From the NCBI GenBank assembly GCA_963814585.1, contig CAWFDF010000004.1:256001-320000 (forward strand): DNA of 64,000 nucleotides, read 5' to 3'. How positions within the stretch are numbered: position 1 is the first letter of the stretch; each line of letters opens with the position of its first letter. Source of the DNA: an uncultured delta proteobacterium. Lineage in GTDB: Bacteria; Myxococcota; Myxococcia; Myxococcales; Anaeromyxobacteraceae. Made by a program: the position numbers and the translations under genes. The notes beneath the pieces were generated by a model. The model did not search any database, had not been told where the DNA came from, and saw nothing but the letters and a program-made list of their open reading frames with translations. Shown in pieces: positions 1,657 to 56,020 of the stretch.

Positions 1657-1670
1657 ATGCAGCGCTGCAT
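1657..1670. promoter_or_regulatory. Perfect 14-bp palindrome ATGCAGCGCTGCAT; candidate enhancer (UAS) for the sigma-54 activator
   Basis: Perfect dyad about 190 bp upstream of a -24/-12 promoter. The same CCATGC-N6-GCAT pattern recurs at 7670 and 55873. Confidence 0.7.
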
Positions 1671-1847
1671 CCCGCCCTGGCCCGGGTCGGTGGCTTCGGC
1701 CCCGGCGAGGCGACGGTGCCGGCGCACCAGCCTGGCCCGTCGAGCGGGCGGTACCCGGCGAAAGCCGTGTGGCGTCGGCCGCGTCGCGCCGTCCCGCCGC
1801 GGGGCGGCGCGGGAGCGGCGCCGGTGACCCTCCGCCCGGTCTCCGGG

Positions 1848-1863
1848 TGGCACGCTTCTGGCT
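1848..1863 (+). promoter_or_regulatory. Sigma-54 (-24/-12) promoter of gabD-gdh-gabT
   Basis: TGGCACGCTTCTGGCT with exact GG-N10-GC spacing, directly downstream of a bEBP gene. Confidence 0.8.
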
Positions 1864-1875
1864 CTTCGGGCGGCC

Positions 1876-3342
1876 GTGGCCATCACGGTTCCCCTGAAGG
1901 ACGAGTTCCTGCTCCGGCAGCGCGGCTTCATCCGCGGCGCCTGGTCGGACGCGTCCGACGGCCGCACCATCACCGTCAGGAATCCCGCCAGCGGCGCCGT
2001 CATCGGTACCGTCCCGCGCATGGGAACCGAGGAGGCCCGGCGGGCCGTGCGGGCCGCCGCCGACGCCCTCCCCGCCTGGCGGGCCCGGACCGCCATGGAG
2101 CGCGCCGCCATCCTGCGCGCATGGTTCGAGCTGATCATGGCCAACCGGGAGGACCTGGCCACGCTGATGACGGCCGAGCAGGGCAAGCCCATGTCCGAGT
2201 CGCGCGGCGAGGTCGCCTACGCCGCCGGCTTCATCGAGTGGTTCGCCGAGGAGGCCAAGCGCGTCTGCGGCGACACCCTGCCCCAGCACCAGGCCGACAA
2301 GCGGCTGCTGGTGCTCAAGTCGCCCATCGGCGTGGTGGCCGCCATCACCCCCTGGAACTTCCCCGCCGCCATGATCACGCGGAAGGCCGGGCCGGCGCTG
2401 GCGGCCGGCTGCACGATGGTGCTCAAGCCGGCCAGCGCCACGCCCTTCTCGGCCCTGGCGCTGGCGGAGCTCGGCGAGCAGGCCGGCCTCCCACCCGGGG
2501 TCTTCAACGTCGTCACCGGGGACGCCTCGGCCATCGGCCAGGAGCTGACCACCAACCCCATCGTCCGCAAGGTCACCTTCACCGGCTCGACCGAGGTCGG
2601 CAAACAGCTGATGGCGCAGTGCGCCTCGACGGTGAAGAAGGTGTCGCTGGAGCTGGGCGGCAACGCCCCCTTCATCGTCTTCGACGACGCCGACCTCGAC
2701 GCCGCCGTGGTGGGCGTCATCCACAGCAAGTACCGCAACAGCGGGCAGACCTGCATCTGCACCAACCGGGTGCTGGTGCAGGACGGGATCTACGACCTCT
2801 TCGCCAGGAAGCTGTCCGCCGCCGTGGCCGAGCTCAAGGTGGGCGACGGCCTGAAGGCGGAGACTCAGCAGGGGCCGCTCATCGACGAGGGCGCGGTCCG
2901 GAAGGTGGAGGAGCACATCGCCGACGCCGTCGCCAGGGGCGCCTCGGTGGTCACCGGCGGACGCCGCCACGCGCTGGGCGGCACCTTCTTCCAGCCCACC
3001 GTCATCACCAACGTGACGCCGGCCATGATGGTGTCGCGGGAGGAGACCTTCGGCCCGCTGGCGCCCCTCTATCGCTTCAAGACCGAGGAGGAAGCCATCC
3101 AGATGGCCAACGACACCGAGTTCGGCCTGGCCTCGTACTTCTACACCCGCGACCTGGCCCGGTCCTGGCGGGTCTCGGAGCGGCTCGAGTGCGGGATGGT
3201 CGGCCTCAACACCGGCCTCATCTCCACCGAGATCGCCCCGTTCGGCGGGGTCAAGGAGTCGGGCACCGGGCGCGAGGGCTCGAAGTACGGCATCGAGGAG
3301 TACCTCGAGCTCAAGTACGTCTGCGTCGGAGGCATCCAGTGA
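1876..3342 (+). CDS. gabD: NAD(P)-dependent succinate-semialdehyde dehydrogenase
   Basis: ITPWNFPAAMITRKAGPALAAGC, FTGSTEVGK, ELGGNAP, catalytic Cys in SGQTCICTNR, EETFGP, GREGSKYGIEEYLE. Confidence 0.95.
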   Translation: MAITVPLKDEFLLRQRGFIRGAWSDASDGRTITVRNPASGAVIGTVPRMGTEEARRAVRAAADALPAWRARTAMERAAILRAWFELIMANREDLATLMTAEQGKPMSESRGEVAYAAGFIEWFAEEAKRVCGDTLPQHQADKRLLVLKSPIGVVAAITPWNFPAAMITRKAGPALAAGCTMVLKPASATPFSALALAELGEQAGLPPGVFNVVTGDASAIGQELTTNPIVRKVTFTGSTEVGKQLMAQCASTVKKVSLELGGNAPFIVFDDADLDAAVVGVIHSKYRNSGQTCICTNRVLVQDGIYDLFARKLSAAVAELKVGDGLKAETQQGPLIDEGAVRKVEEHIADAVARGASVVTGGRRHALGGTFFQPTVITNVTPAMMVSREETFGPLAPLYRFKTEEEAIQMANDTEFGLASYFYTRDLARSWRVSERLECGMVGLNTGLISTEIAPFGGVKESGTGREGSKYGIEEYLELKYVCVGGIQ

Positions 3343-6300
3343 GCCGGGAGCCCGTGGTGCCCGGGACGCCATCGCCCCCGCTCGACCAGAGCGTGGAGCT
3401 GGCCATCGGCGCGCTCGCCGGGGAGGCCAGCCGCGGCTACCGCTGGCTGCGCGACTTCGCCCCCAACGCCTTCGCCAGCACGCTGCGCGAGGACGCTGGC
3501 ATCCTGGCCTCGCTGGCGGCCGGCCTGCCGCGCCTGGCCTCCGACCGCGAGCTGATCCTGGTGGACCGGGATCGCGAGCTGACGCTGGCCCGGCTCGACC
3601 GGCCCGGCTCGGTCTTCGAGACGCTGAAGGGAATCGAGGACCGCGAGATCGCCTCGTCGGAGATCTTCCACTCCGACGCCGCCGTCCCCGGCGCCGACGC
3701 CGGCCTGGAGGTGCACCGGTACGAGTTCGCCGCGCCGGACGGCGCGCCGGGCGCCACGCCGTCGGAGGCGCTCCCCTCCCGGGTCCGCGCCGACATCCGC
3801 GCCGCCGCCGCCGAGCGCCACGCCGACCTCCGGGCCGGCGCGCTGGACGAGGCGCTGGACCTGCTCTGGATCGACAACCCGCGCTGGGTGCGGCTGGCCC
3901 CGCCCGCCGACGTGGCCCAGCTGGCCTGGCTGCTCCACGAGTGCCGGGCCCGAGGCGGGTTCTTCCTCGACCTGGTGGAGCGGGAGGGCGCCGGCGAGCG
4001 GCTCGAGTCGACGGTGCTCTTCGCCATGGCCAGCCCGCCCCCACGCGGCTTCCTCATGCAGGTCACCGAGGTGCTCAACGCCCTCAACCTGGGGTTGCGC
4101 CGCTCCCTGGCGCTCTCGGCCACCGCCGACGGCCAGCGCTACCTGCTGGCCAGCTTCCGCGTCGCCCACCGTGAGGGACTGCCGCTGACCCGCGGCGGAG
4201 AGCTCTTCCGCCGGCTGCGGCGCCAGCTCTTCGCCACCCAGATCCTGTCCATCGAGTCGCCGACCTATCGCGACTTCGTCCTGCCGCGGCTGATGACGGC
4301 CGAGGAGGCCGGGCTGGTCAACGCCTTCATCGGCTTCTGCCACACCCAGTGCGCCCACAACCAGACCGACAACTACACCTACGAGGACGTGGTCCGGGCC
4401 TTCCACTTCCACCCCGACATGTCGCTGCGGCTGGTGCGGCTCTTCAAGGTCCGCTTCGACCCCGACCGGCGCGACCGCGACACCGCCTGGCCGGCCGAGC
4501 TGGCCGAGGTGGAGCGCGAGGTGGCGGCCTACAACACCGGCCACCGGCGGCTCGACGAGTTCCGCCGCTCGCTCTTCCAGGTCGCGCTCACCTTCATCAA
4601 GCGCACCCTCAAGACCAACTTCTTCGTGGACGAGAAGCACGCCCTGGCCTTCCGCCTCGACCCGGCCTACCTCGAGGACCTCGGCCCGACCTTCACCGCC
4701 GACCTGCCCCCGGAGCGCCCCTTCCGCGTCACCTTCTTCGCGGCCCGCTACGGGCTCGGCTACCACGTCGGCTTCGCCGACATCGCCCGGGGCGGCTGGC
4801 GCACCATCTTCGCCGACACCCGCGACGACTACGTCACGGTGGCCAACAGCCTGTTCCGGGAGAACTACGTGCTGGCCCACACCCAGCACCTCAAGAACAA
4901 GGACATCTACGAGGGCGGGTCGAAGATGGTGGTGGTGGTGCACGTCCCGGGGCGGCGGCTGCCGGCGGCGCAGGCGCCGCTCCTCCACAAGGTGCAGCGC
5001 GCCTTCATCAACGCCTTCCTCGACGTCTTCGTCACCGACGGCGGGGTGGCGCGCGATCCGCGGGTGGTCGACCACTACCGCGAGGACGAGCCCATCGAGC
5101 TCGGCCCCGACGAGAACATGCACGACGTCATGATCGAGGAGATCGCCCGCATCTCGGTCAGGCGCGGCTACCTGCTCGGCGCCGGCGTGATGTCGTCCAA
5201 GAAGGTGGGCATCAACCACAAGGAGTTCGGGGTCACCTCGACCGGGGTGATGGCCTTCGCCGAGATCGCCATGGCCGAGCGCGGCGTCGACGTGCGCGCC
5301 GACCCCTTCTCGGTGAAGTTCACCGGCGGGCCCAACGGCGACGTGGCCGGCAACGCCATGCGGCTGATGCTGGAGCGCTGCCCCGGCGCCGCCATCCGGC
5401 TCATCGTCGACGGCACCGGGGCGCTGGTCGACCCGGCCGGCCTCGACCGCGAGGCGCTCTCCCGGATCGTGCTCCGGGAGGACGCCGCCGCCTTCGACGC
5501 CGGCCGGCTCCATCCCGGCGGCTTCGTCCTCTACCGCGACCAGCGGCGCGCCGACGGCCTTCGCCAGCTCCACCGGCGGCTGGAGATGACCGCCGCCGGG
5601 CTGCGCGAGGACTGGGTGACGCTCGACGAGTTCCACCAGGAGTTCAACACCCTGCTCTTCCGCGTCCCCGCCGACCTCTTCATCCCGGCCGGCGGCCGCC
5701 CCGAGACCATCGACGCGGGCACCTGGAGGCAGTTCCTCGGCCAGGACGGGAAGCCCAGCGCCGGCGTCATCGTCGAGGGGGCCAACTCCTTCATCACCCC
5801 GGAGGCGCGCCAGCGGCTCCAGGAGGCGGGGGCGGTCCTGCTGCGCGACGCCTCGGCCAACAAGTGCGGCGTCATCTCCTCGTCCTACGAGATCATCGGC
5901 AACCTGCTCCTCGACGAGCCCGAGTTCCTGGCCCACAAGGCGGCCTACGTCCGCGACGTGCTGGAGATCCTGGAGCGCCGCGCCACGGACGAGGCCCGCC
6001 TCATCTTCAAGCGCCACCGCGAAGCCGGCGGGGCGAGGAGCTTCACGGCCATCTCCGAGGCGCTCTCGGTCGAGATCAACGAGCACAAGGCCCGCCTCTT
6101 CCGGTTCTTCCAGGCCCACCCCGAGGTCCAGCTGGAGCCACCGTACCTGGCGGCGCTGCTGGCCCACCTGCCGCGCCTGGTCCGCGACACCCCGGCCTTC
6201 CGGGATCGGGTGCGGCGGCTGCCGCCCAAGTACCGCTCCGCCATCCTGGCCGCCGAGATCGCCACCACCCTGGTCTACCGGCGCCCGCTCGAGCCCGACT

Positions 6301-6389
6301 TCGGGGCGGCCCTCCACGCCTACGTCGAGCAGATGTTCTCCTCGCCGGTTCGAGGGCGCCCGGGGGCGCCGGAAGGAGCTGGATCATGA
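3339..6389 (+). CDS. Large (~1016 aa) NAD-specific glutamate dehydrogenase family protein
   Basis: C-terminal part of ORF 1716..6389; GTG start overlaps the gabD stop (GTGA). Motifs FADIARGGWR, KNKDIYEGGSK, ELGPDEN, GINHKEFGVTSTG, TGGPNGDVAGN, IVEGANSFIT, DASANKCGVISSSYE. Confidence 0.85.
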   Translation: MSREPVVPGTPSPPLDQSVELAIGALAGEASRGYRWLRDFAPNAFASTLREDAGILASLAAGLPRLASDRELILVDRDRELTLARLDRPGSVFETLKGIEDREIASSEIFHSDAAVPGADAGLEVHRYEFAAPDGAPGATPSEALPSRVRADIRAAAAERHADLRAGALDEALDLLWIDNPRWVRLAPPADVAQLAWLLHECRARGGFFLDLVEREGAGERLESTVLFAMASPPPRGFLMQVTEVLNALNLGLRRSLALSATADGQRYLLASFRVAHREGLPLTRGGELFRRLRRQLFATQILSIESPTYRDFVLPRLMTAEEAGLVNAFIGFCHTQCAHNQTDNYTYEDVVRAFHFHPDMSLRLVRLFKVRFDPDRRDRDTAWPAELAEVEREVAAYNTGHRRLDEFRRSLFQVALTFIKRTLKTNFFVDEKHALAFRLDPAYLEDLGPTFTADLPPERPFRVTFFAARYGLGYHVGFADIARGGWRTIFADTRDDYVTVANSLFRENYVLAHTQHLKNKDIYEGGSKMVVVVHVPGRRLPAAQAPLLHKVQRAFINAFLDVFVTDGGVARDPRVVDHYREDEPIELGPDENMHDVMIEEIARISVRRGYLLGAGVMSSKKVGINHKEFGVTSTGVMAFAEIAMAERGVDVRADPFSVKFTGGPNGDVAGNAMRLMLERCPGAAIRLIVDGTGALVDPAGLDREALSRIVLREDAAAFDAGRLHPGGFVLYRDQRRADGLRQLHRRLEMTAAGLREDWVTLDEFHQEFNTLLFRVPADLFIPAGGRPETIDAGTWRQFLGQDGKPSAGVIVEGANSFITPEARQRLQEAGAVLLRDASANKCGVISSSYEIIGNLLLDEPEFLAHKAAYVRDVLEILERRATDEARLIFKRHREAGGARSFTAISEALSVEINEHKARLFRFFQAHPEVQLEPPYLAALLAHLPRLVRDTPAFRDRVRRLPPKYRSAILAAEIATTLVYRRPLEPDFGAALHAYVEQMFSSPVRGRPGAPEGAGS

Positions 6390-7651
6390 GCGACAACGCG
6401 AGCCTCAAGGCGCGCCGGGAGGCGGCCACGCCGCGCGGCGTGGGCATCACCACCCCGTTCTTCGTGAAGCGCGCCGAGAACAGCGAGCTCTGGGACGTCG
6501 AGGGCCGGCGCTACGTCGACTTCGCCGGCGGCATCGCCGTCCTCAACACCGGGCACCGCCACCCGCGGGTGGTGGCCGCGCTGCGGGCCCAGCTCGACGC
6601 CTTCACCCACACCGCCTACCAGGTGGCGGCGTACGAGTCCTACGTGTCGCTGGCCGAGCGGCTCATCGGGCTCACGCCGGGGCGGCACGCCAAGAAGGCC
6701 ACCTTCTTCTCCACCGGCGCCGAGGCGGTGGAGAACGCCGTCAAGATCGCCCGGGCCGCCACCGGGCGGCCCGGCGTCATCGCCTTCTCCGGGTCCTTCC
6801 ACGGCCGGACCATGATGGGCATGGCGCTCACCGGCAAGGTGGCGCCCTACAAGATCGGCTTCGGCCCCTTCCCGGGGGACGTCTGGCACATCCCCTTCCC
6901 GATGGCGCTGCACGGCGTCACCGTGGCGGAGTCGATCGAGGCCCTCCACCGGCTCTTCAAGGCCGACGTCGACCCGAAGCGGGTGGCGGCCATCATCATC
7001 GAGCCGGTGCAGGGCGAGGGCGGCTTCTACCCGGCGCCGCCGGCGCTCATGAAGGCGCTGCGCTCCGAGTGCGACGAGCACGGCATCCTGCTCATCGCCG
7101 ACGAGATCCAGACCGGCTTCGCCCGGACCGGCCGCTGGTTCGCCATGGATCACCACGACGTGCTCCCCGACCTGATGACGGTGGCCAAGTCGCTGGGGGC
7201 CGGGCTGCCCATCTCCGGGGTGGTCGGCCGCGCCGAGCTGATGGACGCGCCGGCTCCGGGCGGGCTGGGCGGCACCTACGCAGGCAACCCCATGGCCATC
7301 GCCGCGGCCCACGCCGTGCTCGACGTCATCGAGGACGAGAAGCTGGTGGACCGGGCCAACCTGCTCGGCGGCCGGCTCACCGCCCGGCTCGAGAAGCTCA
7401 GGGGCCGGGTCCCGGGCATCGCCGAGATCCGCGGCCCGGGGGCCATGCTGGCGGTGGAGTTCATGAAGCCCGGCGCCGGGCCCGACGCCGATCTCGCCAG
7501 GCAGGTCCAGGCCCGGGCGCTGGAGCAGGGGCTGGTGCTCCTGACCTGCGGCATCCACGCCAACGTCATCCGCTTCCTCTTCCCGCTCACCATCCAGGAT
7601 GCGGTCTTCGACGAAGGCCTGGCCATCCTGGAGAAGGCCCTGACGGCGTGA
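6386..7651 (+). CDS. gabT: 4-aminobutyrate--2-oxoglutarate transaminase
   Basis: ATG overlaps the upstream stop, after GAAGGAG. DFAGGIAVLNTGHRHP, TGAEAVENAVKIAR, SFHGRT, EPVQGEGG, DEIQTGFARTG, AKSLGAGLP, GGTYAGNP. Confidence 0.95.
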   Translation: MSDNASLKARREAATPRGVGITTPFFVKRAENSELWDVEGRRYVDFAGGIAVLNTGHRHPRVVAALRAQLDAFTHTAYQVAAYESYVSLAERLIGLTPGRHAKKATFFSTGAEAVENAVKIARAATGRPGVIAFSGSFHGRTMMGMALTGKVAPYKIGFGPFPGDVWHIPFPMALHGVTVAESIEALHRLFKADVDPKRVAAIIIEPVQGEGGFYPAPPALMKALRSECDEHGILLIADEIQTGFARTGRWFAMDHHDVLPDLMTVAKSLGAGLPISGVVGRAELMDAPAPGGLGGTYAGNPMAIAAAHAVLDVIEDEKLVDRANLLGGRLTARLEKLRGRVPGIAEIRGPGAMLAVEFMKPGAGPDADLARQVQARALEQGLVLLTCGIHANVIRFLFPLTIQDAVFDEGLAILEKALTA

Positions 7652-7669: not shown

Positions 7670-7703
7670 ATGCGCGACCGCATGACGCAGGGCGTTCTTG
7701 CAT
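7670..7703. promoter_or_regulatory. Tandem candidate enhancer sites ATGC-N6-GCAT (7670-7683) and GGGC-N6-GCAT (7690-7703)
   Basis: ccATGCGCGACCGCAT followed 20 bp later by GGGCGTTCTTGCAT; same layout as 55873-55905; about 130 bp upstream of a sigma-54 promoter. Confidence 0.72.
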
Positions 7704-7798: not shown

Positions 7799-7814
7799 TG
7801 GCACATCAAATGCT
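7799..7814 (+). promoter_or_regulatory. Sigma-54 (-24/-12) promoter of the potFGHI-porin operon
   Basis: TGGCACATCAAATGCT with exact GG-N10-GC spacing; GGAGG RBS at 7842 and ATG at 7854 follow. Confidence 0.82.
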
Positions 7815-7853: not shown

Positions 7854-8975
7854 ATGATCCCCTCGTCGCCCCGCCGTCTCGCCACACTCGGCTCCCTCGC
7901 GCTGGCCTGCGCGCTCCTCACCACCTCCTCGGCGCGCGCCGAGGAGGAGAAGGTCCTCAACGTCTACAACTGGTCGGACTACATCGCCGAAGACACCATC
8001 GCCAACTTCGAGAAGGAGACCGGCATCAAGGTCCGGTACGACAACTTCGACTCCAACGAGGTCCTCCACGCCAAGCTGGTGGCGGGTCGCACCGGCTACG
8101 ACATCGTGGTGCCCTCGTCCTACTTCGGGAAGATGCAGCTCGAGGGCGGCCTGCTCCGCAAGCTCGACAGGTCGCAGCTCCCGAACTGGAACAACCAGGA
8201 TCCGGTGATCCTGAAGGCGCTCGAGGAGATGGACCCGGGCAACCAGTACCTGGTCGACTGGATGTGGGGCTACACCACGGTCGGCATCAACGTGGACAAG
8301 GTGAAGAAGGCGCTCGGCGGAATGCCCATGCCGGACAACGCCTGGGACCTGGTCTTCAAGCCGGAGTACGTCTCGAAGCTCAAGTCCTGCGGGGTTTCCT
8401 TCCTCGACTCCGCCACCGAGATCGTCCCGGCCGCGGCGCACTACCTGGGGAAGAAGGCCTACTCGAAGGACGTGGCCAACTACGGCGGCACGGCCGAGCT
8501 GCTGGCCAAGATCCGCCCGTACGTCACGCTCTTCAGCTCCTCGGGCTACATCAACGACATGGCCAACGGCTCCATCTGCGTGGCCCTCGGCTGGTCGGGC
8601 GACATCAACATCGCCAAGCGCCGCGCCACCGACGGGAAGACCGGGCAGAAGATCGAGTGCCTGCTGCCCAAGACCGGCGGCGTCGTCTTCATGGACACCA
8701 TGGGGATCCCGGCCGACGCGCCGCACCCTGGCAACGCGCACAAGTGGATCAACTTCATCCTCCGCCCCGAGGTGGGCGCCTCGCTCACCAACAAGGTCTT
8801 CTACGCCAACCCGAACAAGGCGGGGATGAAGTTCGTGAAGCCGGAGGTGGCCAGTGACCGCACGGTCTTCCCGGGCGAGGAGGACATGAAGAGGATGGGC
8901 CTGCCGGGCGCGCTCAGCAACGACTCGCGCCGCGCCATGACCCGCATCTACACCACCTTCAAGACCGGCCTCTAG
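7854..8975 (+). CDS. potF: Putrescine/polyamine ABC transporter substrate-binding protein
   Basis: Signal peptide (..SSARA|EE), LNVYNWSDYIAEDT, GYDIVVPSS, WMWGYTTVGIN, GWSGD. Start reassigned to ATG 7854 from the RBS. Confidence 0.92.
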   Translation: MIPSSPRRLATLGSLALACALLTTSSARAEEEKVLNVYNWSDYIAEDTIANFEKETGIKVRYDNFDSNEVLHAKLVAGRTGYDIVVPSSYFGKMQLEGGLLRKLDRSQLPNWNNQDPVILKALEEMDPGNQYLVDWMWGYTTVGINVDKVKKALGGMPMPDNAWDLVFKPEYVSKLKSCGVSFLDSATEIVPAAAHYLGKKAYSKDVANYGGTAELLAKIRPYVTLFSSSGYINDMANGSICVALGWSGDINIAKRRATDGKTGQKIECLLPKTGGVVFMDTMGIPADAPHPGNAHKWINFILRPEVGASLTNKVFYANPNKAGMKFVKPEVASDRTVFPGEEDMKRMGLPGALSNDSRRAMTRIYTTFKTGL

Positions 8976-9019
8976 GCCAGCTCCGATCGCACCACCCGGA
9001 CCCCCGACCTGGAAGCCCG

Positions 9020-10123
9020 ATGACCCCGGCAACGGCCGTCCCGGCCTACCTGCAGATCCGTGACGTGGTGAAGGACTTCGGCGGCGGAACGGTCGCCGTC
9101 AACCACGTCAGCCTGGACATCCAGCAGGGCGAGATCTTCGCCCTGCTGGGTTCCTCGGGCTGCGGCAAGACCACGTTGCTGCGGATGCTGGCAGGGTTCG
9201 AGATCCCCACCGCCGGGACCATCCTGCTCGACGGCCAGGACCTGGCCGGGCTGCCTCCCTACCTCCGCCCCATCAACATGATGTTCCAGTCCTACGCGCT
9301 CTTCCCGCACCTCACGGTGTGGGACAACATCGCCTTCGGCCTGAGGCGGGACGGGATGTCGAGGCCCCTCATCGCCGAGCGCGTCGAGGCCATGCTCAAG
9401 CTGGTGCAGCTGCAGAAGTACGGCAAGCGCAAGCCGCACCAGCTCTCCGGCGGGCAGCAGCAGCGGGTGGCGCTGGCGCGGAGCCTGGCCAAGCGACCCC
9501 AGCTCATGCTGCTCGACGAGCCGCTCGGGGCCCTCGACAAGAAGCTGCGGGAGGAGACCCAGATCGAGCTGGTCAACATCATCCACGAGGTCGGGGTCAC
9601 CTGCGTCATGGTCACCCATGACCAGGAGGAGGCCATGACCATGGCCACCCGCATCGCGGTCATGAGCGAGGGGAAGATCCTCCAGGTGGGACCGCCGGCC
9701 GAGATCTACGAGACCCCCGCCACCCGGTTCGTGGCCGACTTCATCGGCAACGTGAACCTGATGGACGGCACGGTGGTGCTGGACGAGCCGGACCTGGTGG
9801 AGATCGACTGCGGCTTCTGCCGCCACCGCATCGGCCACGGCATCACCGGCAGCGTGGGCATGGCGGTCAGCGTGGCGGTCCGACCCGAGAAGATCCGGCT
9901 CAGCCGGGAGAAGCCGGAGGGCGAGGTCAACCAGGTCAAGGGGACGGTCCGCGACCGCTCCTACTTCGGCAGCTTCACGGTCTACAACCTGGAGCTGGAG
10001 GGCGGGCGGCGGCTCAAGGTGAGCGAGAGCAACGTCGAGCGCCACCGCGCCGACGCCCCCGACGAGGGGCAGGTGGCCTGGGCCACCTGGCCCGACACCG
10101 CCCAGGTCGTCCTCACGCTGTGA
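9020..10123 (+). CDS. potG: Polyamine ABC transporter ATP-binding protein
   Basis: GSSGCGKTT, MMFQSYALFPHL, LSGGQQQRVALARSL, LLDEPLGALDKKLRE, TOBE-like C-terminus. Confidence 0.93.
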   Translation: MTPATAVPAYLQIRDVVKDFGGGTVAVNHVSLDIQQGEIFALLGSSGCGKTTLLRMLAGFEIPTAGTILLDGQDLAGLPPYLRPINMMFQSYALFPHLTVWDNIAFGLRRDGMSRPLIAERVEAMLKLVQLQKYGKRKPHQLSGGQQQRVALARSLAKRPQLMLLDEPLGALDKKLREETQIELVNIIHEVGVTCVMVTHDQEEAMTMATRIAVMSEGKILQVGPPAEIYETPATRFVADFIGNVNLMDGTVVLDEPDLVEIDCGFCRHRIGHGITGSVGMAVSVAVRPEKIRLSREKPEGEVNQVKGTVRDRSYFGSFTVYNLELEGGRRLKVSESNVERHRADAPDEGQVAWATWPDTAQVVLTL

Positions 10124-10142
10124 CGACAGGCCCAGCCAGCCC

Positions 10143-11102
10143 ATGAGCCGCCCGCCCGCCACCTCGTTCCTCGACCGGATCCACGCGCATCCGGCCTTCC
10201 GCAAGCACGGGCGGAAGGCGGTCATCGTCGTGCCCTACGTCTGGCTGCTGGTCTTCTTCATGCTGCCCTTCTTCATCATCCTGAAGATCAGCGTCCAGGA
10301 CATGGAGGGGGTCACGTTCCAGCCGGTGGCGAAGCTCCAGGATGGCGTGGCCTCCCTGGTCATCAACTTCAACCACTACCTGTTCCTCCTCCAGGATCGC
10401 CTCTACGTCCAGACCTACTGGTCGAGCCTGAAGTACGCGGCGATGACCACCGTCTGGTGCCTCTTCATCGGCTACCCGTTCGCCTACTTCATGGCCCGCG
10501 CCAAGGCCACCGTCCAGCCGGCGCTGATGATGATGGTCATGCTGCCCTTCTGGACCTCCTTCCTGCTGCGCGTCTACGCCTGGAAGGGCCTGCTCATGGA
10601 GGGGGGCTGGATCTCCCGGCTCCTCATCGCCCTCCACGTCGACGACCTGCTGCTCTTCCTCGACCTCATCCCGGCGGCCGGCATGTTCATGAACTCGCCG
10701 TTCTCGCTGGTGGTCGGCATGACCTACACCTACCTGCCGTTCATGGTGCTGCCGCTCTACGCCACCCTCGCCAAGATGGACCTGCGGCTGCTCGAGGCGG
10801 CCGCCGACCTGGGCGCCACCCCCTGGGTCGGCTTCTGGAAGATCACCGTGCCGCTCTCCAAGGCCGGGATCATCGCCGGGTCGATGCTGGTCTTCATCCC
10901 CTGCATCGGCGAGTTCGTCATCCCCGAGCTGCTGGGCGGGCCGCGCACGCTGATGATCGGCCGCGTCCTCTGGGACGAGTTCTTCTCCAACAACGACTGG
11001 CCCATGGCCGCCAGCGTGGCGGTGGTGGTGATCCTGCTCATCATCGTGCCCCTGGCCCTCTTCAACAAGTACCAGGCCGAGGCCACCGAGGCCCGCGCAT
11101 GA
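10143..11102 (+). CDS. potH: Polyamine ABC transporter permease
   Basis: PYVWLLVFFMLPFFIILKIS, LPFWTSFLLRVYAW, EAA loop LLEAAADLGA, GEFVIPELLGG. Confidence 0.92.
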   Translation: MSRPPATSFLDRIHAHPAFRKHGRKAVIVVPYVWLLVFFMLPFFIILKISVQDMEGVTFQPVAKLQDGVASLVINFNHYLFLLQDRLYVQTYWSSLKYAAMTTVWCLFIGYPFAYFMARAKATVQPALMMMVMLPFWTSFLLRVYAWKGLLMEGGWISRLLIALHVDDLLLFLDLIPAAGMFMNSPFSLVVGMTYTYLPFMVLPLYATLAKMDLRLLEAAADLGATPWVGFWKITVPLSKAGIIAGSMLVFIPCIGEFVIPELLGGPRTLMIGRVLWDEFFSNNDWPMAASVAVVVILLIIVPLALFNKYQAEATEARA

Positions 11103-11956
11103 CCCTCGGGCGCTTCATCCACGGCGGGAGCTTCAACCGGCTCTTCTCGAGGGGCTGGCTGGCGGCCGGCTTCCTCTTCCTCTACCTGCCGATGCTGGCG
11201 CTCATCATCTACTCCTTCAACGAGTCCCCGATGCCGGTGGTCTGGGGCGGGGTCTCGCTGCGCTGGTACCGCGCCCTGGCCCAGGACCGGGAGCTGCTTG
11301 ACGGGCTCTGGCTGTCGCTGCGCATCGCCCTCTACTCCGGCCTGGCCTCGGTGGTGCTGGGGACCCTGGCGGCCTTCACGCTGGTGAAGTACCGCCGCTT
11401 CCTGGGCCGGACCATCTTCAGCGGCATGGTCAGCGCGCCGCTGGTGATGCCCGAGGTGATCATCGGGCTGTCGCTGCTGCTCATGCTGGTCACCATGCAG
11501 CGCTGGCTCGGCTTCCCGGAGCGCGGCCTCCTCACCATCTGGATGGGCCACCTGCTGCTGGGGCTGGCCTACGCCACGGTGGTGATCCAGGCCCGCCTCA
11601 AGGATCTCAACCCGGAGCTCGAGGAGGCGGCCACCGACCTGGGGGCCCGGCCCATCCAGGTCTTCTTCCTGGTGACGCTGCCGCTCATCTTCCAGTCCCT
11701 GGTCTCGGCCTTCCTGCTCACCTTCACCCTGTCGCTCGACGACGTGGTGCTCTCGGCCTTCCTGTCCGGGCCGGGGGCCACCACCATGCCCCTCGTCATC
11801 TTCTCCCGGGCCCGCCTGGGCATGCGGCCCGACGTCAACGCTGCAGCCACCATCATCATCGGCGTCGTGTCGGTGGGGGTGGTGGCCGGCAGCCTGTTCA
11901 TCGCGCGGGCGGAGCGTCGCCGTACCGCCGAGATGGCCGCCGCACAACGAGCCTGA
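11099..11956 (+). CDS. potI: Polyamine ABC transporter permease
   Basis: ATGA overlap with potH. FLYLPMLALIIYSFN, PLVMPEVIIGLSLLL, LEEAATDLGA, FTLSLDDVV. Confidence 0.92.
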   Translation: MTLGRFIHGGSFNRLFSRGWLAAGFLFLYLPMLALIIYSFNESPMPVVWGGVSLRWYRALAQDRELLDGLWLSLRIALYSGLASVVLGTLAAFTLVKYRRFLGRTIFSGMVSAPLVMPEVIIGLSLLLMLVTMQRWLGFPERGLLTIWMGHLLLGLAYATVVIQARLKDLNPELEEAATDLGARPIQVFFLVTLPLIFQSLVSAFLLTFTLSLDDVVLSAFLSGPGATTMPLVIFSRARLGMRPDVNAAATIIIGVVSVGVVAGSLFIARAERRRTAEMAAAQRA

Positions 11957-12004: not shown

Positions 12005-13339
12005 ATGAGAACCCTGAAGCTCACCATCCTGGCACTGGCCCTGGCCGGCGCCTTCCCGACCAAGGCCGCCGACCCGGCCAACGAGACGAAGAAGGTGCTG
12101 CTGGCCGCCCAGCCCGCCGCGGCGGGCATGACGCCCGAGCAGCTGGCCGAGTTCAACCGCATCGCCGTCAAGACCGAGGCGCTCGAGGACGGCCGGGACG
12201 ACTCCGGCTTCAAGGACCTCAAGATCTCCGGGTACGCCGACGTCAACTACATCTACAACTTCAACAAGGAGCGGGGCACCTTCCAGTTCCTGGTGCCGGT
12301 CGACAAGGAGGCGTACGGCTACGACAACTCCTACTTCGGCAGCGTGGCCCTGGACATCCAGAAGGAGATGGAGGGCGGCACCAAGTTCCGCCTCACCCTC
12401 ATCCCCAAGCGCTCCACCGGCGACGTCATGGGGGAGTACAGCATCGTCCACGAGGCCACCGTCTCCATCCCGCTGAGCGGCGACGTCCGGCTCTTCGCCG
12501 GCCAGATCCCCGACTGGCAGGGGTACGAGTACCTGCCGCCGACGCAGAACAAGCTGATCACCCACAACCTGCTCTTCGACTTCACGCTCCCGTCGGTCTA
12601 CACCGGCGCCGGCCTGGAGTTCCCGCTCGGCGACCTGGCCATGAAGGCCGCCATCGTCAACGTCAACACCTCGATCCGCAACATCGGCGAGAACGTCCCG
12701 GCCCTGGTCTTCCGCGGCGACTACGAGGTCAGCGAGTTCTTCGGCTGGGGCTTCGCCGGCGTGGCCGGCATGAAGGCCAACTACCGCTCCGACGACGTCA
12801 ACCCCATCACCACCGAGGCCTACGACACCAAGGACACCATGGCGGCCACCTTCGAGGTGGACGCCTGGTACACCCGCGGCGACCTGTCGCTCTTCGGGCA
12901 CGTCGCCTACGGCCAGCAGGCGGACGCCGCCATCACCGCCGACCCGAACACCGGTGAGATGCGCGACGCCCGCTGGTACGGCGCCTCGGCCCTGCTGGCC
13001 TACAAGCTCACCCCCCGCCTCGAGGGGCTGCTGCGCGCCGACTACGTCTCCAACCAGGAGAACGGCGGCGGCCTGCTCGACTGGGCCTTCGCCGACCCCA
13101 GCAACGGCATCGGCCCCGACCAGAACGGCGGCGATCCGGAGAAGGGGGCCGACAAGTACGCCATCACCGTCGGCCTGAACTACGCCATCAGCTCCAACGC
13201 CACCTTCAAGGCCGAGTACCGCTTCGACGGCGCCACCCAGAACGTTTTCGGCAACAAGGACGTGTTCGTGGGCGGGGCCGACCCGAAGTTCGGCAAGTCC
13301 AACTCGCTGGTGTCGACCGGCGTGGTGGTCTTCTTCTAG
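12005..13339 (+). CDS. Outer-membrane beta-barrel, DUF3138-like putative porin
   Basis: AGGAG RBS, signal peptide, FNRIAVKTEALED..GFKDLKISGY pattern recognised as DUF3138-like, amphipathic beta strands, C-terminal Phe (VVVFF). Confidence 0.78.
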   Translation: MRTLKLTILALALAGAFPTKAADPANETKKVLLAAQPAAAGMTPEQLAEFNRIAVKTEALEDGRDDSGFKDLKISGYADVNYIYNFNKERGTFQFLVPVDKEAYGYDNSYFGSVALDIQKEMEGGTKFRLTLIPKRSTGDVMGEYSIVHEATVSIPLSGDVRLFAGQIPDWQGYEYLPPTQNKLITHNLLFDFTLPSVYTGAGLEFPLGDLAMKAAIVNVNTSIRNIGENVPALVFRGDYEVSEFFGWGFAGVAGMKANYRSDDVNPITTEAYDTKDTMAATFEVDAWYTRGDLSLFGHVAYGQQADAAITADPNTGEMRDARWYGASALLAYKLTPRLEGLLRADYVSNQENGGGLLDWAFADPSNGIGPDQNGGDPEKGADKYAITVGLNYAISSNATFKAEYRFDGATQNVFGNKDVFVGGADPKFGKSNSLVSTGVVVFF

Positions 13340-16877: not shown

Positions 16878-16895
16878 GGCGGCGAGGGGCCTGAC

Positions 16896-36058: not shown

Positions 36059-36063
36059 CCGCG

Positions 36064-38499: not shown

Positions 38500-38637
38500 G
38501 CGGGTCCTCCTGCCCCTCGGCGGGTGGCCGCCCGCCGGCGCGGTGCCCGGCCCGTTCCACCGTGCCGCTCCCTCCGGTCCAGGGAGCGCGGAATCAGGTC
38601 GAGGCGGGCCCGGCCGGGGGTCGAGCCCGCCGCCGAC

Positions 38638-40530: not shown

Positions 40531-40671
40531 GGGGTGCCTCCCTCTTCATGGACCGTGCGCATGCCGGACCGCCGGATCGCGCCGATCGACACCTGCTCGG
40601 ATCGGGGCCAGCGTACCCCATCGACCACCCCGGTTGAAGGCTCGGATCGGGGGTCCGGGCGCGGCCTGCCG

Positions 40672-41049: not shown

Positions 41050-41051
41050 CG

Positions 41052-46138: not shown

Positions 46139-47497
<1,359 letters not shown>

Positions 47498-49476: not shown

Positions 49477-52188
49477 TCAGGCGCTGAGGCCCCCGAACCA
49501 GCCCCGCCGCTCCATCCACTTCGCGAGCTCGAGGACCGGGGACACCGTGCAGGCCGCGGCCACCACGATGATCCAGTCCAGGAGGGGCAGCGGGTAGGTC
49601 CCGAACGGCCCGTTGAGGACGGGCACGTAGATGATCAGCGCGAGCGCGGCCAGCTCCCAGGCGACGGCGAGGTTCAGCCACCGGTTGGCGAACGGTCGCA
49701 CCAGGACGGAGTGCCGGTCCGACCGGAAGTTGTAGGCCTTGACGAACTGGATCAGCACCAGGGACACGAACGTCATGGTCACCGCCTCCGCCGCGCTCCG
49801 GCCGGAGCCGAGGGCCCAGGCGAAGAGGCCGATGTTGACCAGCATCGACCACGCCCCGCCCAGCAGCGTCAGCGTCAGGACGGGCCGCGTGAAGACCCCC
49901 ACCCTGGGATCGCGGGGAGGGCGCCGCATGAGGTCGGCCTCCGGAGGATCCACGGCCAGCGCCAGGGCCGGGAGGCCGTCGGTGGCCAGGTTCACGTACA
50001 GGATCTGGACCGCCGTCAGGGGGAGCGGCAACCCGAGCAGGGAGGCGCCCGCCATGAGCCCGATCTCGCCGACGTTCGACGAGAGCAGGTACATCAGGTA
50101 CTTCTTGATGTTGCTGAAGACGGCCCGGCCCTCCTCGACCGCGGCCACGATCGACGCGAAGTTGTCGTCGATCAGCGTCATGGCGGCGGCGTCCTTGGTC
50201 ACGTCGGTCCCGGTGACGCCCATGGCGACGCCGATGTCGGCCTTCTTGAGCGCCGGGGCGTCGTTGACGCCGTCCCCGGTCATGGCCACGTAGCGTCCCT
50301 TTCCCTGCCAGGCCGCGACGACCCGGAGCTTGTGGGCCGGCGAGACGCGCGCGTAGACCTCGATGGCCCCGACCTGGCGCTCGAGCTCCTCGTCGCTCAT
50401 CGCGTCCAGCTCTGGCCCGGTCACGATCCGACCTTGCTTGAGCAGCCCCAGCTCGCGGGCGATCGCCTGGGCGGTGAGCGCGTGGTCACCGGTGATCAGG
50501 ATCGGCTTGATGCCGGCCCGCTCGCACGCCTCGATGGCCCGGCCGGCCTCGGGACGCGGCGGATCGATCATCCCGACGAGCCCGAGGAAGGTCATCCCGC
50601 GCTCGGCGTCCTCGAGGCTGGCGTGAGGCTTGACCGCCACGGCGAGGACGCGGAGCGCCTCGCTCGCCATGCGCCGGGCCGCGCCGAGGATCCGCTCCCG
50701 GTCCGCCGGCCCCAGGTCGTGATCGCCGTCGTCACCGCTCAGGCGGCTGCACCCCTCGAGGACGACCTCGGGCGCACCCTTCGAGCACGCCACCACGCCA
50801 TCCGCGGTGCGATGCAGCGTGGTCATCCGCTTGGTCTCGGAGGAGAACGGGATCTCCGCCACCCGCGGGCTGTCGATCTCGAGCTCGTGCCGGTGCAGGC
50901 CGGCCTTCGCCGCCGCCACCACCAGCGCCAGCTCGGTGGAGTCGCCCCGGCCGGGCCCGCCCGCCGCCGTCTCGCCGTGTCGCCCGAGCCGGGCGTCCGA
51001 CGCCAGGGCGGCCGCCCGCAGCAGGGCCAGCACCGCCGGCGGCGGCGGGGCGGACTGCCCCGCCTCGGAGAACTCCCCGCGCGGCTCGTAGCCCGCGCCG
51101 GAGACGTCGAAGGTCCGCCCCGCGGCCTCGATCCGCCGGACGGTCATCTCGCCCCGGGTCAGCGTCCCGGTCTTGTCCGAGGCGATGACGGAGACGCTCC
51201 CCAGCGTCTCCACGGCCGAGAGCCTGCGCACCAGCGCGTTGCGCCTCACCATGCGCTGCGCGCCGAGGGCCAGGGAGATGGTCACGACGGCCGGGAGGGC
51301 CTCGGGGACGACCGCCACGGCCAGGGCGATCCCGAAGATCAGCATCTCCCAGAACGACTGGCCCCTGAGGATCCCGAGCAGGACGATCAGCGCCACGACC
51401 GCCACGGCGGCGCGGGCCAGGATCTGGCCCACCCGGTCGAGGTTCTGCTGCAGGGGCGTGCGCCGGCTCTCCACGCCTTCCAGCAGGCGGGCGATCGATC
51501 CGAACTCCGTGCGCATCCCGGTCGCGACGACGACCGCCGACCCCCGGCCGTAGGTCACGGCGGTGCCGGCGTAGACCATGTTCCTCCGATCGCCGATCGC
51601 CAGGTCGGCCCCGGCCAGGGGATCGGTGGCCTTCCGGACGGGCATGGACTCCCCGGTCAGGGCGGCCTCGTCGATCTTGAGGTTGACGTCCTCGGTGACC
51701 CGCGCGTCGGCCGGGACCTTGGCGCCGGCCTCGAGGAGGACGACGTCGCCCGGCACCAGGTCGCGGGCGGCGATCTCCCGCTCCTCGCCGTCGCGCAGGG
51801 CCGTGGCCAGGGGGGCGGCCATGCGCCGCAGCCCCTCCATGGCGCGCTCGGCCCGGTACTCCTGGACGAAGCCCAGCACCACCGCGAACAGCATGATCAC
51901 GGCGATGACCACGGCCTCCAGGGTGTGCCCCAGCAAGGCCGAGAGCCCGACCGCGACCAGGAGGATCAGGATGAGGACGTTCTTGAACTGCGCGAGGACG
52001 AGGCTCCAGGGCGAGGCGGAAGCGGAGGCGGCGAGCTCGTTCGGCCCATGCTCGGCCAGGCGTCGGGCGGCCTCCTCGCCGGTCAGTCCGCTCCCGGTGG
52101 AGGCGAGCCGGTCGTGGACGGCCGCCACGGAGAGCGTGTGCCATACGGACACGGGATCCGGGGGCGCTGGAGCGGGGCTTGCCGGCAT
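49477..52188 (-). CDS. Cation-transporting P-type ATPase (type IIA, Ca2+-ATPase-like)
   Basis: [57 protein letters not shown]. Confidence 0.93.
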
Positions 52189-52371
52189 CAGGTTGCCCTC
52201 CTCATGTCGGGACGGCCTCCGCGGCGCCCGCCTCCTCGCCTGGCCCTCGGAGCCCGCGGGCTGGAGGCTCCAGGAGGCTGGGGACAGCCGGCTCCAGGAT
52301 GGTCGCGAGCCCGTCCCTGCCCCTGCCCGGGCAGCGTAGGCGCGGGACCGTGATCATGCCAATTCATTGTG

Positions 52372-52384
52372 TTGACGTGATCAA
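52372..52384. promoter_or_regulatory. Candidate LysR box TTGA-N5-TCAA (T-N11-A)
   Basis: TTGACGTGATCAA dyad in an AT-rich patch between the divergent ATPase and LysR genes. Confidence 0.55.
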
Positions 52385-52401
52385 TAGAAACTTGTCAATG
52401 T

Positions 52402-53313
52402 ATGGACGGGATCGTGGACCACCTCAACTACCACCACCTCCGGGTCTTCTGGACGGCCGCACGCGAGGGTGGCGTGACGCGCGCGAGCGAGAAGCTGCAC
52501 GTCTCGCAGCCGACGGTCACCAGCCAGATCCGGGCGCTCGAGCGGGTGCTCGGCCAGAGGCTCTTCGTCCGCTCGGGCCGCAGCCTGGTGCTCACCGCCT
52601 CGGGGCGATCCGCCTACCGGTACGCCGACGAGATCGTCGGACTGGGCCAGGAGCTGCTGGACGGGATGAAGGGGGGATCCCCGGGACGCGAGGTCCGGCT
52701 GACCGTCGGCATCGCGGACGTGCTCGCCAAGCAGATCGCCTACCGGATCCTGGAGCCGGCGCTGCGGCTCCCCGAGCCCGTGCGGGTGGAGGGGATCGAG
52801 GACGCTCCCGAGCGCCTGCTGGCCGAGCTCGCGGTCTTCGGGCTGGACGTGGTGCTCTCGGACGCCCCGGTCGGGCCAGCAGCCAGGGTCCGCGCGCACG
52901 ACCACCTGCTGGGCGAGTGCGCGGTCTCGGTGTTCGGCGCAGCCCGCCTGGCCCGGGCCTACCAGCGCGGGTTTCCACGCTCCCTCGACGGCGCCCCCTT
53001 CCTGCTTCCCAGGCCGCACTCGGCCCTGCGGCTCGCGCTGGACGACTGGTTCGATCGCGAGGGCGTGCGGCCTCGAGTGGTCGGGGAGTTCGACGACAGC
53101 GCCCTCATGAATGCGCTCGGACAGGCCGGGCTCGGCCTGTTCCCCGCGCCGTCTCCCATCGCGGAGGAGGTGTGCCGCCAGTACCAGGTCCGCTCGATGG
53201 GGACGATCGAGTCCGTCCGCCAGAGGTTCTACGCCATCACCGTCGAGCGCACCGTCAAGCACCCGGCGGTCCTCGCCATCTGCGAGGCCGCCCGCCGCAG
53301 GCTCTTCCAGTGA
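52402..53313 (+). CDS. nhaR: LysR family regulator, NhaR-like
   Basis: LNYHHLRVFW..REGGVTRASEKLHVSQPTVTSQIRALE, YADEI, GEFDDSALM, FYAITVERTVKHPAV; start may be GTG 52414. Confidence 0.82.
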   Translation: MDGIVDHLNYHHLRVFWTAAREGGVTRASEKLHVSQPTVTSQIRALERVLGQRLFVRSGRSLVLTASGRSAYRYADEIVGLGQELLDGMKGGSPGREVRLTVGIADVLAKQIAYRILEPALRLPEPVRVEGIEDAPERLLAELAVFGLDVVLSDAPVGPAARVRAHDHLLGECAVSVFGAARLARAYQRGFPRSLDGAPFLLPRPHSALRLALDDWFDREGVRPRVVGEFDDSALMNALGQAGLGLFPAPSPIAEEVCRQYQVRSMGTIESVRQRFYAITVERTVKHPAVLAICEAARRRLFQ

Positions 53314-54456: not shown

Positions 54457-55755
54457 ATGAAGAACTGGGAGAAGAACCAGGAAGTCCAGAAGCGGGCGCA
54501 GCGCGTGCTGCCGCTCGGCGTGAACTCCAACTTCCGCCACTGGGGCGAGGGGCTCACGCCCTACGTGAAGCGGGCCAAGGGCGCCCACCTCTGGGACGTC
54601 GGCGGCAACGAGTTCATCGACTACCGGCTGGCGTTCGGGCCCATCATCCTGGGCCACGCCTTCGACGCCGTGGACCAGAAGGTCATCGAGGAGGTCCGCC
54701 ACGGCGTCCTCTTCGCCATGACCGGCGAGCTGGAGATCGACGTCGCCGAGATGATCGTGGAGATGTGCCCGGGCGTGGAAATGGTGCGCATGGCCTGCTC
54801 CGGCACCGAGGCCACCATGCACGCCATTCGCGTGGCGAGGGCCTACACCGGGCGCGAGCTGCTCCTCAAGTTCGAGGGCAACTACCACGGCTTCCACGAC
54901 CACGCCCTCTGGAGCACCTACGCGCCCGCCGACGCCTACGGCAGCCGCCGCAGCCCCATCCCCATCGCCGCCTCCTCGGGCATCCCGCGCGTCCTCGGCG
55001 AGAAGATCATCACCCTGCCCTTCAACGACTTCGAGGGCTTCGAGCGGGTGATGCGCTCCTTCGGCGACCAGATCGCGGCGGTCATCAGCGAGCCCTGCCA
55101 GGGCAACTGCGGGGCCATCATGCCCCAGCCCGGCTTCCTGGAGCTGATCCGGAAGCGGACCACCGAGCACGGCGCGCTCTTCATCCTCGACGAGGTGAAG
55201 ACCGGCTTCCGCATCGCCAACGGCGGCGCGCAGGAACTCTACGGCCTACGGCCCGATCTCGCCACCTACGCCAAGGCGCTCGGCAACGGTTACCCGGTGG
55301 CAGCGCTCGGCGGCACCCGCGAGGTCATGAGCATCATCGGCCAGGGCGTCTCGCAGGGCGGGACCTACACCAACAACAAGGCGGGCATCGCCGGAGCCTG
55401 GGCCACCCTGAAGATCCTCCGGGCCGAGCCGGTCATCGAGACCATCACCCGGCGCGGCACCCGGCTCATGCAGGGGCTCCAGCGGATCTTCGCCGAGAAC
55501 GGCGAGCAGGTCGTGATGAGCGGCTACCCGGGGATGTTCTCCTTCGCCCTCGGCGTCGACGCGGTCACCTGCCAGCGCGACTGGGCGAGGAGCGACCGGG
55601 AGCGGCTGCTCCGGCTCGCCGAGGCCGCCATGGAGCGCGGGGTCATGCCCGACTACGACCCCCGCGAGCCCTGGTTCCTCAGCTACTCGCACAGCGAGGC
55701 CGACATCGACCGGACGCTCGAGGTCTACGCCGAGATCGTGAAGCGGGTGAAGTAG
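54457..55755 (+). CDS. Class III aminotransferase, glutamate-1-semialdehyde aminomutase (HemL)-like paralogue
   Basis: PLGVNSNFR, IDYRLAFGPIILGH, CSGTEATMHAIRVARAYTGR, KFEGNYHG, DEVKTGFR, YAKALGNGYP, GGTY; differs from authentic HemL at several signature positions. Confidence 0.85.
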   Translation: MKNWEKNQEVQKRAQRVLPLGVNSNFRHWGEGLTPYVKRAKGAHLWDVGGNEFIDYRLAFGPIILGHAFDAVDQKVIEEVRHGVLFAMTGELEIDVAEMIVEMCPGVEMVRMACSGTEATMHAIRVARAYTGRELLLKFEGNYHGFHDHALWSTYAPADAYGSRRSPIPIAASSGIPRVLGEKIITLPFNDFEGFERVMRSFGDQIAAVISEPCQGNCGAIMPQPGFLELIRKRTTEHGALFILDEVKTGFRIANGGAQELYGLRPDLATYAKALGNGYPVAALGGTREVMSIIGQGVSQGGTYTNNKAGIAGAWATLKILRAEPVIETITRRGTRLMQGLQRIFAENGEQVVMSGYPGMFSFALGVDAVTCQRDWARSDRERLLRLAEAAMERGVMPDYDPREPWFLSYSHSEADIDRTLEVYAEIVKRVK

Positions 55756-55872
55756 CGGCGCGAGCGCGAGCGGCCCGTACCCCGTCGAACGGCCCGCTGC
55801 GGCCGCTCCGGGGGCCGCGCAGTCATCCCTCTGACGGGGGGCTACGCGGGGCTCCAGCGCATCGCCGGAGCC

Positions 55873-55905
55873 ATGCGATCGTGCATGGCCAGGGCAGCCC
55901 CGCAT
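55873..55905. promoter_or_regulatory. Tandem candidate enhancer sites ATGC-N6-GCAT (55873-55886) and GGGC-N6-GCAT (55892-55905)
   Basis: ccATGCGATCGTGCAT followed 19 bp later by GGGCAGCCCCGCAT; same architecture as 7670-7703. Confidence 0.72.
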
Positions 55906-56004
55906 GACTCGAAAGAGTCAGCGGTCGGGCCAGAACGACGCAACACGTTGAAGTTCCACATACCCGATTGGGGTCAGGCCTGCCTCTTCCGGTCGAATGA
56001 CTCG

Positions 56005-56020
56005 TGGCACGTCTGGTGCT
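56005..56020 (+). promoter_or_regulatory. Sigma-54 (-24/-12) promoter of the aminotransferase-GNAT/ALDH/saccharopine dehydrogenase operon
   Basis: TGGCACGTCTGGTGCT with exact GG-N10-GC spacing, 132 bp downstream of the dyad. Confidence 0.82.

Follow-up and report, generated by a model that had tools for sequence, protein, structure and literature searches.

The 64,000-nucleotide stretch analysed here (G000:C4:256001-320000, hereafter the window), from an uncultured member of the Anaeromyxobacteraceae, opens within a gene for a sigma-54-dependent bacterial enhancer-binding protein (bEBP), which is predicted to recognise the dyad ATGC-N6-GCAT and to co-activate five sigma-54 promoters for polyamine and 4-aminobutyrate (GABA) use. 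Judged from sequence comparison, this bEBP-dyad regulon is very probable, and the whole account, in which GABA or succinic semialdehyde additionally serves as the signal, is assigned a probability of roughly 0.7. An initial annotation of the window had proposed that three operons are linked by the shared dyad and by sigma-54 boxes; all three belong to the predicted regulon, but the regulon has five promoters, two of them outside the window.

The regulator had been placed at positions 2-1630. The gene is indeed present there on the plus strand, but only as its 3' part, the actual start lying 145 bp before the window, and the full gene (C4:255855-257630) encodes 591 aa. Profile searches assign PAS, sigma-54 AAA+ (PF00158) and helix-turn-helix (HTH; HTH_50, PF18024) domains, and the HTH helix ends in GVNQSTIARK, an NQST helix that is unique to this protein among the 25 bEBP-like matches in the genome. 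Its closest named homologues are from the Anaeromyxobacteraceae. An rpoN gene was found in the genome, and an N-terminal sensor, AAA+ and HTH domains, GG-N10-GC boxes and an upstream dyad are present as well, as in a one-component sigma-54 bEBP regulon. Assignment to TyrR was rejected because the NCBIfam TyrR model reached 271.3 bits against a cut-off of 576 and only the HTH_50 domain is held in common, and XanR, PrdR and other named bEBP families were discarded because the protein falls below their cut-offs or into a separate clade.

Within the window, exact dyads were recovered at 1657-1670 (single-site type, 27 bp past the bEBP stop), 7670-7683 (pot promoter) and 55873-55886 (third operon), together with TGGCAC-N7-GC boxes on the plus strand at 1848-1862 (gab operon), 7799-7813 (pot operon) and 56005-56019 (third operon), in agreement with the positions and with the dyad-box distances of 191, 129 and 132 bp first reported. 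The weak second sites GGGC-N6-GCAT also hold at the pot promoter (7690-7703, +20) and at the third operon (55892-55905, +19), but a third such site, at 55849-55862 (-24) before the third operon, had been missed; no strand is assigned to dyads or weak sites. All three dyads carry the CC prefix originally included in the motif, but this prefix is not invariant: among 64 promoters, position -2 is C in 40, T in 20 and G in 4, and position -1 is C in 30, T in 21, G in 9 and A in 4, and 'ccATGC' was dropped as a fixed motif because of these varying flanks. The three dyads compare with a shuffle mean of 0.47, and one of 100 shuffles reached three. TGGCAC-N7-GC shows no enrichment (6 matches in the window, both strands counted, versus 5.24 expected), and the textbook TTGC at -12 occurs in none of the three window boxes. 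The box pattern taken alone was rejected as evidence since it lies at chance level, and the case therefore rests on dyad-box pairing plus conservation. Neither sigma-70 promoter nor terminator matches were found in 55700-62500.

Genome-wide, five -24/-12 boxes have the dyad upstream at a distance of 129-191 bp. In total the genome holds 46 dyads, 11 of them with a loose box downstream. When scored with a matrix trained solely on relatives (57 dyads and 51 boxes), the five promoters reach 34.4-39.7, against 24.5 for the next genomic match and 27.6 for the best match in a reversed-genome control; in a genome scan of the kind first proposed, they stand far above background. The fourth promoter has its dyad at C4:255832, 10 bp before the bEBP start codon and pointing away from the bEBP, and precedes genes for a YdcSTUV-like transporter, a PRK07046 transaminase and the putrescine aminotransferase PatA (over cut-off). 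The fifth (dyad at C18:10219) precedes a second, frameshifted gabD and the gene for the aminobutyraldehyde dehydrogenase PatD (over cut-off). This second gabD (L002 7068-10232, G000:C18) is about 82% identical, with the frameshift near codon 228 and the dyad kept; its box is identical to the gab box and it stands before the genome's sole intact patD.

Across the 64 promoters the site consensus is YNATGCRNNNNYGCATNR, with eight dyad bases fixed and the N6 spacer and flanks varying freely, and the dyad precedes the box by 78-251 bp (mode 131). In the tandem-type layout, a strong site is followed 19-20 bp later by a weak site, with the box 121-144 bp away; 40 of the 64 promoters, with the dyad 115-145 bp before the box, are of tandem type. 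The weak site occupies +19/+20 in 33 of these 40 promoters and -23/-24 in 12, and any other downstream offset between +14 and +44 is used in at most 2. In the gabD-type layout, a single site just behind the bEBP stop is combined with a box at variable distance. The gabD start codon lies 14-17 nt past the -12 C in 13 of 16 gabD promoters (here 1848-1878), which suggests a near-leaderless sigma-54 mRNA.

Conservation around the regulator gene follows the same pattern. A bEBP orthologue is encoded in 27 of 91 other family genomes and in none of the 256 searched genomes from other families of the phylum. The exact dyad occurs upstream of the bEBP gene in 26 of these 27 genomes and downstream in 23 of the 26 having enough sequence, and is absent from 45.5 kb of bEBP coding sequence. 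In the phylum of G371 (the genome recorded as Geobacter argillaceus; Desulfobacterota side), 301 genomes were searched and 10 bEBP matches were obtained in 8 of them: all eight orthologues with the NQST helix are flanked by the dyad on at least one side, versus neither of the two matches with an altered helix (GLSQPT or GVTQAT). Their neighbours are mostly gabT (over the TIGR00700 cut-off in the single case tested), a Liv-type ABC transporter and gabD, with gdh once, and two Holophagaceae loci show the same arrangement. When a fixed, narrow composite of dyad and box was run over 92 family genomes, 37 matches were obtained, 34 of them in 13 of the 28 bEBP genomes and 3 in the other 64 (one of these in G004); the reversed control gave 12. 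Neither dyad nor box was found before potF in G084 and G085. The ydc operon keeps its own dyad-box pair where it has been relocated (G083, G011), and the dyad-box code travels with the operons through rearrangements. In relatives the motif stands at corresponding places.

The third operon provides a further comparison. Its aminotransferase gene is present in 24 of the 92 family genomes, 23 of them with upstream sequence that was analysed; G100, whose match is truncated by the end of its contig, was left out, as was an additional partial match in G074. Every one of the 12 genomes that have the bEBP carries a dyad within 700 bp upstream, against none of the 11 that lack it, where G004 is counted as bEBP-bearing from the first 55 codons at a contig end (otherwise 11 of 11 and 1 of 12). 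In G009, which is 100% complete and has no bEBP orthologue, the orthologous promoter DNA is kept and both the dyad and the -12 GC have been lost. Conservation at the bEBP flanks, agreement with the helix and loss together with the regulator make the dyad the likely binding site of this bEBP, as originally proposed, and matrix ranking and cross-genome co-occurrence support the predicted co-control of the three operons.

The 54-kb reach emphasised in the initial annotation proved less noteworthy. The third operon lies directly behind the porin gene in G002, G001, G084, G083 and G007 and directly behind the bEBP gene in G011, and the 42-kb gap in the present genome is therefore attributed to rearrangement. 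Long-range enhancer action was rejected, since each operon owns a dyad and the operons are adjacent in relatives. The link of the distant operon to the regulon was right, with an explanation plainer than long range.

The targets fit a common pathway. On the plus strand behind the first box are gabD, for succinate-semialdehyde dehydrogenase (1876-3342; NF008415 833.8 bits, cut-off 828), gdh, for an NAD-glutamate dehydrogenase-like protein (3339-6389; PF05088, PF00208), and gabT, for GABA transaminase (6386-7651; TIGR00700 609.8, cut-off 506.65). The second box precedes, on the same strand, a potFGHI-like polyamine ABC transporter (7854-11956, comprising 7854-8975, 9020-10123, 10143-11102 and 11099-11956) and a DUF3138/BBP2 porin (12005-13339); the PotF model scores best for the potF-like gene though below its cut-off, and TIGR01187 is over cut-off. 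The third operon, also on the plus strand, consists of a class III aminotransferase of the lysine aminotransferase (LAT)/eukaryotic GABA aminotransferase (GABA-AT) type with a fused C-terminal GNAT-like domain (56088-58403), an aldehyde dehydrogenase (ALDH; 58407-59891, no subfamily cut-off reached) and a saccharopine-dehydrogenase-fold protein nearest to carboxyspermidine dehydrogenases (CASDH; 59888-61120). This ALDH was rejected as PatD, the true PatD being encoded on C18. As annotated, the five-promoter regulon encodes a complete putative route that begins with putrescine uptake and leads via GABA to succinate.

Dimers of bEBPs bind upstream dyads, oligomerise, loop to the sigma-54 holoenzyme and open the promoter. 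The PAS-bEBP would bind the dyad in this manner and co-activate the five promoters; tandem sites may load two bEBP dimers, and the dyad located 10 bp ahead of the bEBP start codon may also repress the regulator's own gene. The regulon would import polyamines and break them down through GABA to succinate, with glutamate dehydrogenase presumably recycling 2-oxoglutarate for the transaminases and the third operon feeding a further amine, either a higher polyamine or a lysine-derived one, into the same route. The signal sensed by the PAS region is most likely GABA or succinic semialdehyde, because gabT, gabD and the Liv-type transporter form the core across phyla, with the polyamine genes confined to one subgroup, and because GabR of Bacillus thuringiensis responds to both compounds according to the available text of PMC4279683.

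Several observations weigh against this account. As many as 41 of the 46 genomic dyads lie away from the five promoters, and 15 of the 28 bEBP genomes have no narrow composite match, although these include genomes with TGGTA boxes or other dyad-box distances. On the tree of the third operon, the co-occurrence reduces to only three independent contrasts, each of which agrees with the expectation (p = 0.25 by sign test). The sole genome without the upstream dyad contains a distant family homologue (G088, 42%). The AAA+ loop reads GSFTGA; of the 121 proteins read, GAFTGA is present in 111 and 9 were unparsed. GSFTGA is among the loop variants that retain activity in the portion of Kazakov et al. 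2015 (PMC4641369) available, and was counted as a GAFTGA-type loop of a putatively functional bEBP. Finally, two orthologues have the dyad at genes for pyrroline-5-carboxylate (P5C) dehydrogenase and proline dehydrogenase, and the motif therefore does not fix the signal. In these two loci (L290 5900-10587 and L296 9909-14207), the same helix and dyad accompany P5C dehydrogenase, proline dehydrogenase and a Liv-type transporter.

Three rival explanations were considered. The dyad might be the site of another factor, such as the PuuR-like XRE protein encoded at 30276-30881, with the bEBP acting via an unseen site; the window does hold a PuuR-like gene, and relatives have one close to the cluster, but the dyad tracks the bEBP and its helix over three phyla, disappears where the helix is altered and is absent from the XRE-mmsA promoters. 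Moreover, among the 80 bEBP loci listed as matches in a general bEBP-alignment contig scan, which served mainly as a control set, WTGC-N6-GCAW occurs near a box in 6 of 10 with a [ND][QA]ST..RK helix versus 5 of 70 others, in sequences of varying length and including non-independent kin, and this explanation is considered improbable. Even less credence is given to chance, or to functionless similarity left over from duplicated promoter DNA. The box pattern alone is at chance level and the two gabD promoters of the genome have an identical box, but eight bases stay fixed over 64 promoters while spacer and flanks vary, the arrangement is conserved across phyla, and a wide gap in matrix score separates the five promoters from background.

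The third explanation retains the regulator and its sites and differs in the signal and main substrate, which would be lysine-derived (lysine, cadaverine or 5-aminovalerate) or a polyamine, the third operon being lysine-catabolic. The third-operon aminotransferase is nearest to pig GABA-AT and Mycobacterium tuberculosis LAT, and its substrate loop, N-S/T-T-W, aligns without gaps to that of the M. tuberculosis LAT, with Asn in place of the Phe of pig GABA-AT. PatA, PatD, GabT and GabD of Escherichia coli also handle cadaverine, and some orthologues of the regulator control other amino-acid genes. Against a lysine route, the aminotransferase scores only 193.6 bits with TIGR03251 (L-lysine 6-transaminase; cut-off 520.8), no piperideine-6-carboxylate model is among the 25 best for the partner ALDH, the dehydrogenase is far nearer to CASDH (E 1e-19 to 4e-21) than to the lysine 6-dehydrogenase PH1688 (2e-6) or to saccharopine reductases, which are also far weaker, and many bEBP genomes lack the third operon. 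On balance this explanation is regarded as unlikely, and the regulon responding to GABA or succinic semialdehyde is preferred.

Accordingly, neither the 'lat' nor the 'saccharopine dehydrogenase' label of the initial annotation is established, the former because the TIGR03251 cut-off was missed and the latter because the protein is nearest to CASDH. The aminotransferase falls below both the LAT and the GABA-AT cut-offs, with insertions and the fused domain present; its C-terminal part gave no Pfam or NCBIfam match, and the putative GNAT-like assignment derives from Atlas features alone (0.97). Relatives 60% identical to the aminotransferase-GNAT fusion occur outside the family, and in family genomes without the bEBP the fusion stands alone, with neither ALDH nor dehydrogenase nearby (L029-L039). 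For the ALDH, no specific solved relative was found.

The best solved relatives of the dehydrogenase are CASDH structures (PDB 8deb, 4ina; described in the accessible part of PMC10413350). The positions of His228, Glu230 and Glu188 are kept and Ser replaces Glu229, and this His-Ser-Glu instead of the His-Glu-Glu of CASDH recurs wherever the motif was read in close homologues. In BfCASDH, Ser-Arg-Thr binds the NADP phosphate according to the same partial source, and Asp stands at that position here. Unlike CASDH, the gene has a catabolic neighbourhood and no decarboxylase partner, carboxyspermidine decarboxylase (TIGR01047) not having been found in the genome, which is 91.7% complete. A CASDH function was rejected given the changed triad, the missing partner and an NF043000 score of 39.2 bits against a cut-off of 800, and lysine 6-dehydrogenase and saccharopine reductase were rejected given their far weaker similarity. 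Among 49 metagenome loci of the dehydrogenase gene, two unrelated low-GC contigs have the ALDH-dehydrogenase pair beside flavin amine oxidase, gabT and gabD, others have it beside gabT-like, patD-like or flavin oxidase genes, and many are short or without such neighbours. These amine-type neighbours thus support amine catabolism for the third operon, the placement first proposed, as does the shared dyad code. One 65% identical CASDH-like gene (L248 7983-9182) stands alone near ATP synthase genes on a contig of different composition.

Two concrete options can be named for the third operon, namely a lysine-related role, which is unlikely as stated above, and NAD-dependent cleavage of a higher polyamine, which is advanced tentatively. 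In the latter, the putative enzyme of the CASDH/homospermidine-synthase fold would run oxidatively and use NAD+ to cleave spermidine or a related polyamine at its secondary amine; the ALDH would oxidise the amino-aldehyde, and, without any need for oxygen, the products would join the PatA-PatD-GabT-GabD and beta-alanine/MmsA routes. The retained His-x-Glu, the NAD-type Asp and the missing decarboxylase partner fit such a reaction. No description of a catabolic CASDH-like enzyme was found in the literature, where one may still stand in figures, supplements or subscription papers not seen.

Among known systems, the putrescine transaminase pathway of E. coli (PatA, PatD/YdcSTUV, GabT, GabD) has the same enzymes and a YdcS-like transporter. 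The E. coli pat and gab genes answer to NtrC/Nac and sigma-S, unlike the dedicated PAS-bEBP proposed here. A precedent for a bEBP that senses GABA or succinic semialdehyde is GabR of B. thuringiensis, a PAS-AAA+-HTH sigma-54 activator of gabT that is induced by GABA or succinic semialdehyde, and the present bEBP is likewise a PAS-AAA+-HTH protein adjoining gabT/gabD. As described in the available text (PMC4279683), GabR recognises a 21-bp inverted repeat with a 5-bp interruption near the box, a geometry different from the 14-bp dyad; it does not bind its own promoter and controls one operon, versus five here.

The initial annotation had not recognised the motif from described regulators, but the TGC-N6-GCA layout has already been predicted for XanR and CdsR1. 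Nie et al. 2019 (PMC6615313, Table S3) predict WTGC-N6-GCAW sites for XanR and, for both CdsR1 and GamR, sites resembling TTGC-N6-GCAA; all three regulators are from Clostridiales. XanR is also a PAS-bEBP with the same HTH type; its predicted sites, such as GATGCAGAAGTGCAAC and GTTGCAATTATGCATA, lie 100-250 bp before the sigma-54 box, some in tandem 18 bp apart, and its targets belong to C4 metabolism (abfD). GamR, with puuD/puuT as targets, has degenerate sites in that list, and both GamR and CdsR1 are likened here by site layout. XanR-type proteins, taken from loci with a published site before an HpaB-family gene, were found at published-site loci in 12 of 251 clostridial genomes. They are about 40% identical to the present bEBP over 428 aa and form a separate clade (support 100), and are therefore not orthologous. 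Their related helix reads GI[DN]AST[FL]VRK against GVNQSTIARK, their outer site base is A or T against a fixed A/T pair here, and they target abfD operons as opposed to the predicted gab, pot, ydc-patA, patD and third-operon targets. In Bacillus seohaeanensis, an exact dyad lies behind a bEBP with the helix of the present regulator. Together with the XanR-like sites and the helix-site association, this locus places the motif within a known layout of HTH_50 bEBPs. An Oscillospiraceae locus (L090 2125-7105) encodes a bEBP with the NQST helix; 3 kb from it, genes for a TRAP transporter and an AbfD-type protein are preceded by divergent sigma-54 boxes with two exact dyads between them. The accessible text of PMC4641369, PMC3162934, PMC4941409 and PMC10117139 contains no matching regulator, and no description of this regulator or its exact motif was found in the literature, where RegPrecise, unseen figures and supplements, and subscription papers could hold one.

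These results predict a binding site and a regulon of five promoters for a so far unstudied family of bEBPs in Anaeromyxobacteraceae, Geobacter-side Desulfobacterota and Holophagaceae, and indicate the probable way in which polyamine and GABA use is turned on there. They tie two uncharacterised proteins, the aminotransferase-GNAT fusion and the CASDH-like dehydrogenase, to amine breakdown, and add cases to the HTH-helix-to-site code. The regulatory logic itself is textbook, and the more surprising possibility is the enzymology of the third operon.

Other genes of the window deserve mention. At 54457-55755 lies a gene for a glutamate-1-semialdehyde aminomutase-like transaminase with a score of 619.8 for NCBIfam GntE (guanitoxin biosynthesis; cut-off 525), which has no dyad and moves with the polyamine cluster in relatives; it is probably a catabolic enzyme, the other gnt genes being outside the search. 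The PuuR-like XRE regulator is divergent from mmsA, a class III aminotransferase gene and a flavin oxidase gene (30276-35243, dyad-free); together they probably form another amine or beta-alanine unit under control of its own, which in several relatives adjoins the third operon. Next come two aldehyde:ferredoxin oxidoreductase-like genes, of which one carries a fused MoeB/ThiF domain, with moeA and an ABC transporter (35240-42266), and genes of this oxidoreductase type also stand behind gabT in several outside orthologue loci. Elsewhere between the operons (15741-20000, 46148-47497, 49477-53313) are an RND efflux pair, a serS-like gene, a P-type cation ATPase gene and an NhaR-type regulator gene, and the window ends in a minus-strand subtilase gene with Ig/cadherin-like repeats (62394-63998).

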